Source of the DNA: Candidatus Promineifilaceae bacterium
GTDB lineage: Bacteria; Chloroflexota; Anaerolineae; Promineifilales; Promineifilaceae
Reading direction: 5' to 3'
Assembly (NCBI GenBank): GCA_046259485.1
Contig: JBJYWP010000002.1
Coordinates: 87,104-151,103, forward strand
Length of the DNA: 64,000 bases
The notes beneath the pieces were generated by a model, which saw only the letters and a list, made by a program, of their open reading frames with translations, searched no databases and was not told where the DNA came from. Of this stretch, positions 1 through 64,000 are shown one piece after another; the first letter of the stretch is position 1; each line of letters starts with the position of its first letter. Both the position numbers and the translations under genes were made by a program.

Positions 1-1206
1 TCGATGTGGAAATTCCTGCTCTGTATCGTCATAAAACAATTCAACGCTGCGGACGCCTAATGAGTCGGACACCAAAAGTCCTCCGTTCTGACGCCACCCT
101 GTAAATTCAGGCATCGCCATGAGCGAGTTGAGTGCTTGTGGGTCAAAACTGACGGGCGCTGTCGTTGCCCGAATATTACCCTGGAATCCTTGGTAACGAA
201 TGTGGGTGCTGAGCAAGCCATCAACGATGGATGACTCGTCCGGCGCTGTCCCCGTAACCGCCATAAAGGGTGCTAGTTCGATTTGCTTTAGCTGTTCCAG
301 AGAATTACGGACGGTAGGTACTTCTTCGTCAGTTGGCCTGTCGCTGCTTCCTTTTCCGGGAAAACTCTTGGCGATTACGGCGATGCGATTCTGGCTTCCT
401 TGGTGAATACCATCTGTATAAGCCTGGCCCATTAATCCAACCCAATATGGGTCACCGCCAAATGTACTGGTTCCCAGGTCCGCAGGATTTTTGGGCTGGG
501 GATTTTCCAGGACATCGAGCGTAGGACCGAATAACATATTAATGCCCGCGGCATTTAATTCCTGACCTATTAGTTCCCCGATTTTTCGAGCATAGTCAGT
601 ATCCCATGTGCTGCCCATGGCCATGTTCGTCGGCACGGCCGTAAAGCCGCCAAGAATTCGCTGCCCATTATTGGTCTGCCCTTCATGCTGCATCGCTATG
701 AATAGGGGGAGACGCAGTCCTACTGGGCTGGGTGATGGTGTAGGGATAGGAGTCTGAAATTCTTGAGAATCGGTGATTGGTGGAAGAGCGACCTCCTCAC
801 TAACCGCCTCCGGCAGTTCTCCAAGCAGGGCTAAACTTTGTAGGTCATTCGTTAGCTGAAGCAGCTGCTCTGGTGTATCTCCCGGGTTTCCAAAGCCGGT
901 GAAGTTATCAAAAGATGGCTGCAAAACAACCCCGCCTACCTTATAGTTGGCAATAAGGTCGATGAGCTCGCTGTCAAGGGTCAGACTGTCTCCTTCGAAA
1001 GAGATCAGAAACAGCTGGCCTATTCTCTCTTCGACATTCATTTGATCGAAGAGCTGTTCTATATCAACCTCAACCTGTTCTTGAGTATGCCCGGGTTCGA
1101 CTGCAGGGAAAAAGAAATGGACAAGCAGAAGCAGAATCCAAACGACGCGTTGGAACCGTAATTTAACCAAGGGTAAATTATCTGGGAAAGGCACCCGGAT
1201 TCTCAC
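1..1206 (-). CDS. Glycoside hydrolase family 3 (NagZ-like beta-N-acetylhexosaminidase); C-terminal part runs off the window start
   Basis: Minus-strand frame is open from a GTG at 1204..1206 to base 1, and is missing from the ORF track because it hits the window edge. My translation gives a signal anchor (VVWILLLLVHFF) followed by KVGGVVLQ, GINMLFGPTLDV and KSFPGKGSSD, which are GH3-type motifs. The usual KHFPGHG histidines are replaced. Confidence 0.65.
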   Translation of the reverse strand, partial: MRIRVPFPDNLPLVKLRFQRVVWILLLLVHFFFPAVEPGHTQEQVEVDIEQLFDQMNVEERIGQLFLISFEGDSLTLDSELIDLIANYKVGGVVLQPSFDNFTGFGNPGDTPEQLLQLTNDLQSLALLGELPEAVSEEVALPPITDSQEFQTPIPTPSPSPVGLRLPLFIAMQHEGQTNNGQRILGGFTAVPTNMAMGSTWDTDYARKIGELIGQELNAAGINMLFGPTLDVLENPQPKNPADLGTSTFGGDPYWVGLMGQAYTDGIHQGSQNRIAVIAKSFPGKGSSDRPTDEEVPTVRNSLEQLKQIELAPFMAVTGTAPDESSIVDGLLSTHIRYQGFQGNIRATTAPVSFDPQALNSLMAMPEFTGWRQNGGLLVSDSLGVRSVELFYDDTEQEFPHR

Positions 1207-1507
1207 TTCTTCTTTTACACATGAATTAATATCAATTATCCTAGAACATTTCGGCGTTTCTAGAATTATCGATTAATGTTTACCCATCAAAGTATAGCGC
1301 AGATTGCCTCCCAGAACACCTGTGTTAAACTTGCACCCATTGGGACGCGCCCTATTTGTGTCAGATAGTAATTTAAAATAGAACGCTAGTCTGGCGTGGG
1401 TTCTAGCCTGTAATTGGTGGTCTCCCTGCATCTAATACTACCACTGTCCAATGAGAGATTATTCTCGGGAGCAATTCAGCTGTGAAGCCCGATAAGGCAT
1501 TAGATTT

Positions 1508-2698
1508 ATGTCAAGTCGAACCAGAAATTCAATCACTATATTGCTATTAATTCTCCTCGTGGCCGGCGCGTTTACGGCCGGCTATTTTGTCAGTGAATTA
1601 AGAACCAAAGGAAATCAAGTTCATGCTGATGAGGAATTTGACGTATTCTGGGAAGCCTGGAAGCTGATTGATGAAAATTACATTGGCCAGTTACCGGTGG
1701 AACAGCAGCGAACTTATGGTGCGATACGCGGTTCATTGGAAACGCTTGAGGATCCTTATACCGTTTTTATTGAGCCGGTCGTTCGTGACCTGGAACGCGA
1801 ACAACTGCAAGGGAGTTTTGGTGGGATAGGGGCTTATATCTCTCGTCCTGAGGATGGGGTAGATGTCGTTTTAGAACCCATTCCCGGCAATCCGGCTGAG
1901 AAAGCGGGTATCTTGTCCGGCGACGTTCTCATTGCCGTCGATGGAGAACCAATTACAGCAGATTTTACCGTAGCGGAAATAGCTGATTTGGTAAAAGGTG
2001 AAAAAGGGACCATTGTTGTTCTTACTGTTTTGCATCAGGGAACTGACAAAGCTGTTGATATTGATGTCATTCGTGATGATATTCTGATACCTTCCGTGAC
2101 CTACCATCTCCTTGAGCAGTATCCGATTATTGGCTATATTCGTTTATCACGATTTAGTGCCGAAAGCGGCCAGGAAGTGGCTGACGCGCTTACGGATTTA
2201 GAGGAGCAGGGCGCCACCGGATACATTCTCGACCTGCGACAAAATCGAGGTGGATTATTGAATGCCGCGGTTGACGTTGCCGACCAGTTCCTTGGCGAAG
2301 GTCCGGTAGTTATTCAGCAAAGCACGGATGAAGGACAGCGGATTTTTGACTCCACGGCCGATACGCTTGTTCCCGATGCTCCTTTGCTTGTCTTGGTAGA
2401 TGGTGGTACGGCCAGCGCTGCCGAAATTGTCGCCGGAGCGCTCAGGGATCGTGAACGTGCCCAATTGGTTGGCAATGAACCAACCTATGGAAAGGGATCT
2501 GTTCAGCTTGTATTTGACTTGAGTGATGGTTCTTCGGTTCATGTAACCTCCGCACGCTGGCTGACGCCTAATGGGACGCAGCTTGATGGCCAGGGTCTGG
2601 AGCCGGATATCATGGTAGAAATCACACAAGAAGCTCTGGATAATGGGCGTGATGAAGTGCTTGACCAGGCTGTTGAATTCTTAGGTGCGGACGAATGA
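1508..2698 (+). CDS. S41 family C-terminal processing peptidase (Ctp), membrane anchored
   Basis: 396-aa ORF with an N-terminal TM helix, a PDZ-like segment (GDVLIAVDGEPI) and an S41 core (LDLRQNRGGLL, GTASAAEIVAGAL, TYGKGSVQ). Confidence 0.9.
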   Translation: MSSRTRNSITILLLILLVAGAFTAGYFVSELRTKGNQVHADEEFDVFWEAWKLIDENYIGQLPVEQQRTYGAIRGSLETLEDPYTVFIEPVVRDLEREQLQGSFGGIGAYISRPEDGVDVVLEPIPGNPAEKAGILSGDVLIAVDGEPITADFTVAEIADLVKGEKGTIVVLTVLHQGTDKAVDIDVIRDDILIPSVTYHLLEQYPIIGYIRLSRFSAESGQEVADALTDLEEQGATGYILDLRQNRGGLLNAAVDVADQFLGEGPVVIQQSTDEGQRIFDSTADTLVPDAPLLVLVDGGTASAAEIVAGALRDRERAQLVGNEPTYGKGSVQLVFDLSDGSSVHVTSARWLTPNGTQLDGQGLEPDIMVEITQEALDNGRDEVLDQAVEFLGADE

Positions 2699-63153: not shown

Positions 63154-63541
63154 AAATTCCCAGATGGCACCTCGCGATCATCGCCAGCGCCTCGGCCGCT
63201 GGGGTGAAAACCTGGCCGCTGATTATCTTGAGGCCAAAGGTTATCAGATTCTGGCTCGCAACTGGCGATCGCGAAGCGGTGAAATTGACCTGATAACTCA
63301 AACTGGCGAGACACTGGCTTTTGTCGAGGTTAAGACAAGAAAGGGGAGGGATTTCGGCCTGCCCGAAGAGGGTTTGACGGCTTCCAAAGCGGATCGCTTG
63401 CAGAACCTGGCCAAACAATATCTGGCTCAAAATGATCTTCATGAAATCGATTGGCGCATTGATCTTGTCGCCGTCGAACTCGATCATAACGGCCGTCTCC
63501 TGCGCTGCGAACATATTCCTAATGCCGTTCTTGGTTGGTAA
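63146..63541 (+). CDS. yraN: YraN family (UPF0102) endonuclease-like protein
   Basis: GENLAADYLEAKGYQILARNWRSRSGEIDLI and AFVEVKTR are present. I prefer the start at 63146, which overlaps the prs stop; the track extension from 63020 lies inside prs. Confidence 0.8.
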   Translation: MNKNSQMAPRDHRQRLGRWGENLAADYLEAKGYQILARNWRSRSGEIDLITQTGETLAFVEVKTRKGRDFGLPEEGLTASKADRLQNLAKQYLAQNDLHEIDWRIDLVAVELDHNGRLLRCEHIPNAVLGW

Positions 63542-63582
63542 TCGCGCATTGCCATTCAATTCGAAGTTGTCAAGGTTCGGTC

Positions 63583-64000
63583 ATGACAAAAAAAGGTCAA
63601 AATGGAAAAATCGGGAACTTGCTGGTGATTGTCGGTCCCACGGCCGTCGGCAAGACAGACCACTCCCTTTCTCTTGCCATGGATTTTGATGGTGAAATAG
63701 TCTCTGCAGATTCTCGATTATTCTATGAAGGAATGGATATCGGCACCGCCAAACCATCGATCGCCGAGCGAACGGCCGTTCCCCACTATCTCATTGATAT
63801 CTGCAAGCCTGACCAAACCCTGACTTTAGGTGAGTACCAGCGCCTCGCTTACCACACAATTGAAGAAATACTGGATCGCGGCCGCCTGCCTATTCTTGTC
63901 GGCGGCACCGGCCAATATGTTATGGCTGTTGTAGAGGGATGGGGTATTCCTGAGATTGCCCCTTATCCCGAACTGCGCCGGCAGTTAGAACGGCTTGGCC
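63583..64000 (+). CDS. miaA: tRNA dimethylallyltransferase, N-terminal part (runs off the window end)
   Basis: My translation from the ATG at 63583 reads MTKKGQNGKIGNLLVIVGPTAVGKTDHSL..SADSRLFYEGMDIGTAKP..HYLIDI..ILVGGTGQY. This gives a P-loop plus MiaA motifs. Confidence 0.88.
   Translation, partial: MTKKGQNGKIGNLLVIVGPTAVGKTDHSLSLAMDFDGEIVSADSRLFYEGMDIGTAKPSIAERTAVPHYLIDICKPDQTLTLGEYQRLAYHTIEEILDRGRLPILVGGTGQYVMAVVEGWGIPEIAPYPELRRQLERLG

Follow-up and report, generated by a model that had tools for sequence, protein, structure and literature searches.

The octamer ACGGCCGT, a perfect palindrome with the core CGGCCG, recurs throughout a 64,000-nt stretch of DNA (hereafter the window, meaning this whole stretch) that almost certainly comes from an uncultured filamentous bacterium close to the Promineifilaceae, in whose lineage the octamer is a highly iterated palindrome (HIP). 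The feature is a HIP in the style of the cyanobacterial HIP1 (GCGATCGC), with a new word and in a new phylum, the Chloroflexota. It is, with near certainty, written into ordinary genes mainly through the choice of synonymous codons and partly through amino-acid replacement. Some 30 years after HIP1 became known, whether it reflects selection, biased repair or an uptake signal is still debated; to our knowledge, all HIP studies so far have concerned one phylum and essentially one word.

Abundance of the palindrome in the window

An initial annotation of the window, made by eye, had listed at least 34 copies of ACGGCCGT and about 110 of CGGCCG. Exact counting over the 64,000 nt gives 34, at the positions listed, and 111, and these are the top 8-mer and the top 6-mer there: the runner-up palindromic octamer has 7 copies and the runner-up hexamer outside the word 55. 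The octamer density of 531 per Mb corresponds to an observed-to-expected ratio (O/E) of 36 under an order-0 model and 30 under an order-2 model, in DNA of 49.6% G+C with no unusual skew, and the hexamer is 3- to 7-fold over expectation. Higher-order Markov and codon-shuffle nulls, which the annotation had named as checks on its claim, were run on the window and bear it out. Simulated Markov nulls of orders 0, 1, 2, 3 and 4 expect 0.8, 0.6, 1.0, 2.5 and 4.6 copies, respectively; a synonymous-codon shuffle that keeps the proteins leaves 2.9 ± 1.6 copies (maximum 9) and a shuffle of codon order 1.1 ± 1.1, against 30 real copies in the shuffled coding sequences (the gene calls behind these statistics are simple open reading frame (ORF) calls). 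A heavily constrained, context-preserving shuffle keeps 17. Only nulls that already hold the word's own 6- or 7-mers come up to the count, with 19 expected from a Markov model of order 5 and 30.8 from one of maximal order; the value of 30.8 means that, given the core, the 5' and 3' flanking bases are picked independently, and it is no proof of a chance origin. Among the 111 CGGCCG, the 5' base is A in 60 and the 3' base is T in 57.

Site-by-site assignment agrees with the annotation in placing the copies on both strands, in all frames and in unique contexts, and in the frames themselves: 19 are read as NAC-GGC-CGT ([N/H/D/Y]-Gly-Arg), 13 as ACG-GCC-GTN (Thr-Ala-Val), one as A-CGG-CCG-T (Arg-Pro, at 11206), and one, at 61367, is intergenic. 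The sequence around the copies is unrelated past 1–2 bases, so they do not form a repeat family. The three 12-nt palindromes reported earlier are all real (TAACGGCCGTTA at 16952–16963, AAACGGCCGTTT at 36882–36893 and GAACGGCCGTTC at 63770–63781). The genes that bear the word are ordinary housekeeping genes, among them pyruvate:ferredoxin oxidoreductase, pyruvate phosphate dikinase, aconitase, formate-tetrahydrofolate ligase and a VorB-type oxidoreductase operon; smpB and ybeY also belong to the housekeeping genes of the window. A scan of the window with Rfam and for tRNAs gave no match.

Distribution among relatives

The closest named homologues of the window's VorB-like protein belong to Candidatus Promineifilaceae, Promineifilum, Ardenticatenaceae and Anaerolineae, the families being placed by NCBI in the Chloroflexota, class Ardenticatenia. 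The formate-tetrahydrofolate ligase protein is identically encoded on 18 contigs from NCBI metagenome-assembled genomes (MAGs; for example GCA_046259415.1), ENA and JGI, and ten of these contigs, where they overlap the window, are 99.9% identical to it and retain every octamer. Polymorphism among these strains comprises 55 single-nucleotide polymorphism positions, none of them in an octamer, which is too few to inform on drive.

The word is specific to one clade, in which at least two named families share it, and its strength differs among the relatives (about 20 kb was sampled per relative). Syntenic relatives carry approximately 0.6 copies of ACGGCCGT per kb (12 in 21 kb in L092, 8 in L095, 7 in L093 and 13 in L336), whereas 80 loci from other species with a homologue of pyruvate:ferredoxin oxidoreductase have at most 0.13 per kb, against 0.53 in the window. 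Among loci picked through glycyl-tRNA synthetase homology and not through the motif (L337, L338 and L341), whose density is therefore unbiased, an Ardenticatenaceae MAG holds 32 copies in 21.4 kb (O/E 63) and Ca. Leptofilum 28 (O/E 78), both at about 1.3–1.5 per kb, and a 'Chloroflexi bacterium' MAG holds 17 (O/E 55). A Caldilineaceae genome has a single copy, which is near expectation, as in other Anaerolineae. The closest relative found, L091 (a 59-kb contig of JGI 3300056970), is fully syntenic with the window at 87% protein and 78% DNA identity and has nearly lost the word, with 3 copies at a G+C content of 45.8% (vs 50%); its commonest 8-mers give no sign of a substitute. Ca. Promineifilum breve (L094) has 4 copies vs 0.7–1.6 expected.

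Where orthologous positions can be compared, 36–45% of the window's sites are identical in HIP-rich relatives, against about 8% for control windows of the same codon phase; for L091 the figures are 21% and 14%.

In Ca. Promineifilum breve, the gene-sense strand holds 18 copies of CGTGGCCG and the opposite strand 5, read as xxC-GTG-GCC-Gxx (Val-Ala); this excess follows gene orientation and resembles codon or dipeptide usage in a genome of 64% G+C, in which CGGCCG is the commonest hexamer (83 vs 58 expected) and the octamer is not enriched. The 'Chloroflexi bacterium' MAG (L341) has a 51-nt tandem repeat of about 20 units at 6040–7132, just downstream of a subtilase gene.

Phages and mobile elements

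IMG/VR was scanned for two copies of the word within 30 nt and the JGI metagenomes for three, and the figures that follow hold among the matches listed. Unique-context DNA with 2–3.8 octamers per kb was found alike in chromosomal, phage and integrative-element contigs. Dense chromosomal contigs include L238 (with glycyl-tRNA synthetase and MutS2-like genes), L247 (with a full-length FtsK), L273 and L292; dense phage contigs include L162, which encodes the small and large terminase subunits and a portal protein, and the similar L101, L163 and L178. Many IMG/VR contigs, which lie within L096–L215 and include L096, L111/L339, L162, L164 and L178, have the word 2–4 times per kb; terminase, portal and capsid genes are present among them, and the fetched segments of different dense IMG/VR contigs are mostly without common genes. 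The shared word suggests that the viral contigs belong to hosts of this clade. Because the hyper-dense loci were found through clustered sites, their local density is somewhat inflated, the search itself contributing only 2–3 of the 28–71 sites per locus.

A hyper-dense integrative element of 100 kb (L339) encodes an integrase, an FtsK/SpoIIIE-type translocase, a lytic transglycosylase, ParA and RadC, and no plasmid relatives of it were found. Over 21.3 kb, 71 sites were counted in it, with densities of 6.7 per kb between genes and 2.8 per kb within them. The non-coding DNA of the dense relatives carries the word as often as coding DNA or more. In L095, a relative with a 3.56-Mb contig, insertion sequence (IS) elements hold none of the 31 CGGCCG of the 21-kb locus. 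A transposase cluster in this locus (5533–9293; DDE_Tnp_1 and rve/IS21-type with IstB) is inserted in a conserved operon.

A phenomenon distinct from the dispersed word is a degenerate 12-nt satellite, (TGTACACGGCCG)n, in which ACGGCCGT and GTGTACAC alternate over 1–2 kb. It was seen in L262, L275, L235 and L249 and in many short contigs of Ga0056108, Ga0056133-135, Ga0209259 and Ga0209459; Tandem Repeats Finder gives a period of 12 and about 120 copies for L262.

How the word is spelled into genes

Coding copies depend on tripeptides whose codons permit the word. In the window, [NHDY]-Gly-Arg is spelled NAC-GGC-CGT in 19 of 22 cases, where codon usage expects 0.67, and Thr-Ala-Val is spelled ACG-GCC-GTN in 10 of 16, where it expects 1.47; in the dense loci permissive Thr-Ala-Val occurs 4–23 times per locus and is nearly always spelled as the word. 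Permissive tripeptides are realised as the word at 76% in the window, 64% in L092, 58% in L095, 38% in L093 and 14% in L091, and at 11% (about expectation) in Ca. Promineifilum breve; in ten other Chloroflexota loci the figure is 0. Three of the six Thr-Ala-Val of the window that are not spelled as the word (2914, 2965 and 3040) lie within 130 nt of one another in the peptidase gene 2695–4170. We considered whether the site-free stretch at 20.8–32.5 kb is a foreign island and rejected this, since it contains no permissive tripeptide and most of it is syntenic in relatives.

The flanks of the core are graded. In the xxC-GGC-CGN frame of the window, CGGCCG is realised in 20 of 22 cases after a 5' A, 9 of 18 after T, 4 of 13 after G and 3 of 13 after C, and of the 20 cases with a 5' A, 19 have T as the unconstrained last base of the Arg codon. 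The 77 other CGGCCG spread across 1–64000 show a flank preference of 5' A > T > G, C, mirrored at the 3' side, and represent the same signal in partial form. The drive extends to all eight positions and includes changes that require a transversion. One-off variants in the window number 8–29 copies at positions 1/8 and 0–5, the background level, at positions 2–4. The pooled dense loci (244 kb) hold 568 ACGGCCGT vs 5.7 expected, and core-position one-offs (68 over nine classes, against the 568 full sites) are at background level or lower; full octamers make up 55–80% of the CGGCCG in these loci. In dense relatives the consensus widens symmetrically to ggAA-ACGGCCGT-TTcc, with a flank preference present in all three reading frames and outer flanks that vary by contig (GGAAACGGCCGTTTCC in L096, ACGGCCGTC in L164 and AAAACGGCCGTTTT in L341).

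The initial annotation had further proposed that the word distorts protein sequence. In the window this effect is only modest: word-compatible tripeptides are about 2-fold enriched (about 1 in controls), and a search for excess amino-acid change at window sites relative to relatives found none, the triples being conserved at approximately the background rate. In dense relatives the effect is strong: the O/E of Thr-Ala-Val is 7.5 in chromosomal loci and 9.2 in those of viral or mobile origin, and that of [NHDY]-Gly-Arg is 3.7 and 4.7, respectively. The alignment of orthologues, a check also suggested there, shows site differences that are both synonymous and non-synonymous (examples of the latter, at 9945 and 12823, are given below). 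The window's Leu/Phe-tRNA-protein transferase gene has an Ardenticatenaceae orthologue in which three sites depend on residues other than those of the window, and relatives without the word spell the same peptides with other codons.

Methylation, restriction and repair signatures

Deamination-type one-offs of the core number 64 (TGGCCG/CGGCCA), 47 (CGGCTG/CAGCCG) and 26 (CGGTCG/CGACCG) in the window, vs about 30 expected, and none is clearly depleted. A S-adenosylmethionine (SAM) methyltransferase gene at 36718–37440 matches generic SAM-methyltransferase domains only. A scan of the loci for DPPY-type motifs returned one phage ORF (L162, 1554–2117), which has no Pfam match.

GGGCCC, an ApaI-type site and another NGGCCN palindrome, is missing from the window (0 vs 13.3 expected at order 2) and almost absent clade-wide (0 vs 17 in Ca. 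Promineifilum breve, 0 vs 10.2 in the 100-kb element, and likewise in dense contigs; the loci checked were the window, L094, L221, L238, L337 and L339). Its scarcity is a classic signature of restriction avoidance and a fate opposite to that of CGGCCG. CCWGG is about 1.5-fold over-represented in the window (254 vs 166 expected) and 1.4- to 1.7-fold in the syntenic relatives (L091–L095 and L336), and rarer than expected in L164, a dense viral contig (21 vs 37); the excess could reflect a Dcm/Vsr-like system.

Sites along the window

Sites are listed without a strand, and genes with coordinates and strand. The leftmost copy (635–642) encodes Thr-Ala-Val in a minus-strand open frame, 1–1272, that leaves the window at its left end. 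An S41 peptidase gene (2695–4170, +) has AAC-GGC-CGT (Asn-Gly-Arg) at 3929–3936, and a flavoprotein/DFP (coaBC-like) gene (6975–8207, +) has Tyr-Gly-Arg at 7999–8006 and Thr-Ala-Val at 8148–8155. In the GH94 gene (8261–10711, +), the copy at 9945–9952 encodes Asp-Gly-Arg where relatives have Asp-Gly-Ser/Ala/Glu, so that this site rests on an amino-acid difference. The sole A-CGG-CCG-T copy (11206–11213; Ile-Arg-Pro-Phe) lies in an acetyltransferase gene (10754–11230, -) and is kept in L091 and L092. The formate-tetrahydrofolate ligase gene (11298–13073, -) has Asp-Gly-Arg at 12447–12454 and Thr-Ala-Val at 12823–12830; the latter is Thr-Ala-Ile in four relatives, and the Ile/Val difference creates the site. 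A Usp gene (13141–13989, -) has His-Gly-Arg at 13234–13241.

The gene of the 2-oxoacid:ferredoxin oxidoreductase beta subunit (15860–16681, -) has His-Gly-Arg at 16436–16443, a site also present in L092 and L095, and the VorB-like alpha subunit gene (16650–17747, -) has Tyr-Gly-Arg at 16758–16765, Thr-Ala-Val at 16954–16961 (inside TAACGGCCGTTA) and Asp-Gly-Arg at 17142–17149. The alanine dehydrogenase-like gene (18490–19620, +) contains Tyr-Gly-Arg at 18689–18696, identical in all four aligned syntenic relatives, and Thr-Ala-Val at 18835–18842, where L091 and L093 keep the peptide with different codons. Further copies are found at 20809–20816 (His-Gly-Arg; acetyl-CoA hydrolase/transferase gene, 19617–20912, +), 32474–32481 (Asp-Gly-Arg; ECF transporter ATPase gene, 31684–33450, +), 36884–36891 (Asn-Gly-Arg, inside AAACGGCCGTTT) and 37142–37149 (His-Gly-Arg), both in the class I SAM methyltransferase gene (36718–37440, +), 37883–37890 (Asp-Gly-Arg; YqeY gene, 37480–37944, +), 39126–39133 (Thr-Ala-Val; 7TM-HD gene, 38004–40199, +) and 42591–42598 (Thr-Ala-Val; proline dehydrogenase gene, 41696–42724, -).

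In the right-hand part, the aconitase gene (44569–47412, +) has Thr-Ala-Val at 45958–45965, the dihydroorotate dehydrogenase-like gene (47507–48508, -) Tyr-Gly-Arg at 47795–47802, the pyruvate:ferredoxin oxidoreductase gene (48566–52240, -) Asn-Gly-Arg at 49541–49548, the pyruvate phosphate dikinase gene (52262–55072, -) Thr-Ala-Val at 54243–54250 and a GAF histidine kinase gene (56255–57409, +) Thr-Ala-Val at 57230–57237. A tandem-Usp gene (59973–60905, +) encodes His-Gly-Arg twice, at 60349–60356 and 60802–60809, and the DUF423 gene (60923–61297, +) Thr-Ala-Val at 61049–61056. The sole intergenic copy (61367–61374) lies between the end of this gene at 61297 and the start of the next at 61397. 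The UPF0102 (YraN-like) gene (63020–63541, +) has Asn-Gly-Arg at 63489–63496. Two Thr-Ala-Val copies lie in an open frame that begins at 63583 and leaves the window at its right end: 63772–63779, inside GAACGGCCGTTC, and 63640–63647, part of the P-loop-like GPTAVGKT, which indicates that the word can occupy a stretch resembling a functional motif.

Discussion

The comparison with HIP1 that the initial annotation had drawn stands. Here as there, a palindromic octamer is the commonest genomic word, occurs at hundreds per Mb in tens- to hundreds-fold excess, is dispersed over unique coding and non-coding contexts, cannot be explained by composition, codon usage or protein sequence, deviates by one-offs mostly at its outer positions, and is shared clade-wide, down to individual sites, with sporadic losses; in both, some lineages lengthen the palindrome. 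HIP1 is reported at 300–2700 per Mb with O/E of 55–228 (PMC4390886) or in 15- to 300-fold excess (PMC5861425), and the window's density and O/E (about 30–36) fall within the published ranges. Classic 6- and 4-bp methyltransferase sites are nested in both words, CGGCCG with GGCC in the present one and CGATCG with GATC in HIP1. Unlike HIP1, which has cognate and often orphan methyltransferases, the word has none that we found in the window or the dense loci, and hyper-dense phage and integrative-element contigs and a strong proteome skew (7- to 9-fold for Thr-Ala-Val) are documented here in addition. HIP1 proper was rejected, as the word differs and the host is one of the Chloroflexota and not of the Cyanobacteria; GCGATCGC has 5 copies in the window (order 2 expects 2, the maximal-order model 6.7) and is not enriched, and a cyanobacterial positive control (L004) has 23 in 23.6 kb.

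Alternative HIPs are known from cyanobacteria (GGCGCC in Calothrix PCC 7103, GCSGC in Cyanothece PCC 7822, RCCGGY in Oscillatoria PCC 10802, and TCGATCGA; PMC4390886). They too show different lineages iterating different palindromes, they are tied to lineage-specific methyltransferases, and a methyl-directed repair ratchet has been proposed to explain them, but they are 5- to 6-mers or HIP1 derivatives in sporadic single strains of one phylum, whereas the present word has an 8-bp core and a 16-bp footprint. The literature searched (for the word, CGGCCG excess, HIP1 with Chloroflexi, and Ardenticatena palindromes) nowhere describes the word as an iterated palindrome; the annotation had remarked that it knew of no such HIP for this kind of genome.

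On the origin of the word, we tentatively favour a site-specific drive by biased repair or recombination over site-by-site selection, probably linked to methylation, and put it at not quite an even chance. A sequence-specific factor would read the symmetric site and bias repair or recombination, turning near-matches into the word and restoring copies already present, a molecular drive that would act on each replicon replicating in the cell. A methyltransferase may act on CGGCCG or GGCC, paired with a reader favouring A/T flanks, after the methylation-directed mismatch-repair ratchet that Elhai (2015) proposed for HIPs (PMC4390886, section 3.4); density in a lineage would then mirror the strength of the drive, and loss of the factor would let the word decay. 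Saturated permissive sites, graded flanks, drive at all positions, the non-coding excess and equal density in phages and integrative elements point to a directional process at the level of DNA and not to selection at each site. The sharp differences in strength between close relatives fit a single factor gained or lost, and the 16-bp symmetric footprint suggests a dimeric reader.

Several results weigh against this drive. No DNA methyltransferase, restriction, Vsr-like or MutH-like gene was found among the annotated genes of the window or in a scan of its unannotated ORFs of at least 150 aa, and a C5-methyltransferase motif scan of all sampled loci gave none in the dense loci, its sole match lying in an unrelated Contendobacter locus. 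The 16-bp footprint exceeds typical methyltransferase sites. The window lacks the signature of simple very-short-patch repair, a scheme at odds with deamination-type one-offs that show no depletion. Most hyper-dense loci, moreover, were picked by clustered sites, with the inflation of density noted above. Xu et al. (2018) described a kilobase-scale periodic spacing of HIP1, with periods of 10–90 kb, and argued from conservation that the HIP1 sites are kept by selection and not by biased repair, and are tied to chromosome structure (PMC5861425). Excess sharing at orthologous positions is seen here as well, although parallel drive predicts the same and the sharing therefore does not discriminate.

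A selected protein-binding site, serving as a 'self' mark for a nucleoid, segregation or defence factor and mimicked by phages and mobile elements, is a less likely but serious rival. Dimeric DNA-binding proteins typically have a symmetric consensus like the 16-bp one seen here, orthologous positions share sites 4–5 times as often as control windows, phages and the integrative element reach host-like or higher density while IS elements lack the word, and the case made for HIP1 (PMC5861425) is of the same kind. Near-saturation and a 7- to 9-fold tripeptide skew would, however, demand effective selection at thousands of sites; density ranges at least 6-fold among relatives, with L091 nearly without the word and no substitute in its commonest 8-mers; and no candidate reader protein was found. 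Chi, too, is an over-represented octamer; a nuclease reads it as 'self', and phages can acquire it, but it is asymmetric, strand-oriented and only few-fold enriched.

An uptake or transfer signal, accumulating by preferred uptake followed by recombination, is likewise a serious rival, if an unlikely one. The DNA uptake sequences (DUS) of Neisseriaceae and the uptake signal sequences (USS) of Pasteurellaceae are also short, occur at about 1 per kb in genes in tolerated frames, form family-level dialects, and are thought to spread by molecular drive rather than by selection on each site. The present word, at 0.5–3 per kb, has weak positions at its edges and graded variants in related lineages and is missing from IS elements, and its hyper-dense element encodes a translocase of FtsK/SpoIIIE type, an integrase and ParA; HIP1 has been tied, in recent work, to natural transformation and type IV secretion genes (bioRxiv 10.1101/2024.09.10.611283; 10.64898/2026.06.24.733823). 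DUS and USS, however, are asymmetric 9- to 12-mers read by competence machinery, whereas this word is a perfect palindrome, and bona fide phage contigs, encoding terminase and portal proteins, match chromosomes in density, which uptake bias does not predict. We know of no DNA uptake sequence that is a palindrome.

An EagI-type restriction-modification target, or Dcm/Vsr-like repair of one methylated cytosine, is very unlikely. CGGCCG is the EagI/XmaIII recognition site, and very-short-patch repair raises the frequency of its target word in Escherichia coli. The link to EagI drawn in the initial annotation is no more than an identity of sequence. No methyltransferase or restriction gene accompanies the word in the window or the dense loci, and the flanks count far more than a 6-bp enzyme predicts, the unit being the 8-mer to which most dense-locus hexamers belong. 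Restriction targets are normally avoided, not enriched, as GGGCCC is here (0 vs 13). The Dcm/Vsr repair of CCWGG also enriches its own recognition word, but with a small effect at one position and depletion of the T-containing one-off, whereas the excess here is 30- to 150-fold, every position is driven, transversions included, and no one-off is depleted.

An origin of the excess in base composition, in codon usage or in recurring protein motifs, for which one might cite the two peptide frames that hold most copies, the common codons GGC, GCC and CCG and the 17 copies kept by the constrained shuffle, is refuted by the Markov nulls of orders 0–4 (0.6–4.6) and the codon shuffles (1–3) against 34 copies (30 in the shuffled coding sequences), by the other codons of word-less relatives, by the richer intergenic DNA of dense relatives and by the 80 unrelated loci at ≤0.13 per kb. 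A dispersed repeat (REP/MITE-like or satellite) or an assembly artefact is likewise refuted, the satellite of other metagenome contigs notwithstanding, by the unrelated flanks, by the position of 33 of the 34 copies in coding frames of conserved genes and by ten other assemblies from NCBI, ENA and JGI that keep all octamers.

The palindrome is a second, independent example of the HIP1 phenomenon, new in word and phylum, and a different word in an unrelated phylum makes the HIP1 question comparative. Useful contrasts are at hand in a strength that differs among relatives, from near expectation up to about 3.8 per kb, in the loss lineages L091 and Ca. Promineifilum breve, and in phages and integrative elements at full density; a comparison of HIP-rich genomes (GCA_046259415.1, GCA_020634395.1, Ca. 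Leptofilum and GCA_002748985.1) with HIP-poor relatives (L091, Ca. Promineifilum breve and Caldilineaceae) could let a responsible gene be found. Some assemblies of these activated-sludge filamentous bacteria reach megabase contigs (for example 2.0 and 3.6 Mb, ERZ25039514), and if these are long-read, methylation at the word could be called directly. For the clade itself, the word distorts codon-usage and k-mer statistics and creates dense EagI/HaeIII-type sites, and it could aid binning and phage-host assignment. It is conceivable, though we would not yet call it likely, that one sequence-specific system in a Chloroflexota clade reads a 16-bp palindrome, writes it through biased repair or gene conversion into chromosome, integrative elements and phages, remodels the proteome in doing so, and switches on and off between close relatives. 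If the site-writing reading is true, iterated palindromes would be a general, convergent outcome and not a cyanobacterial peculiarity.

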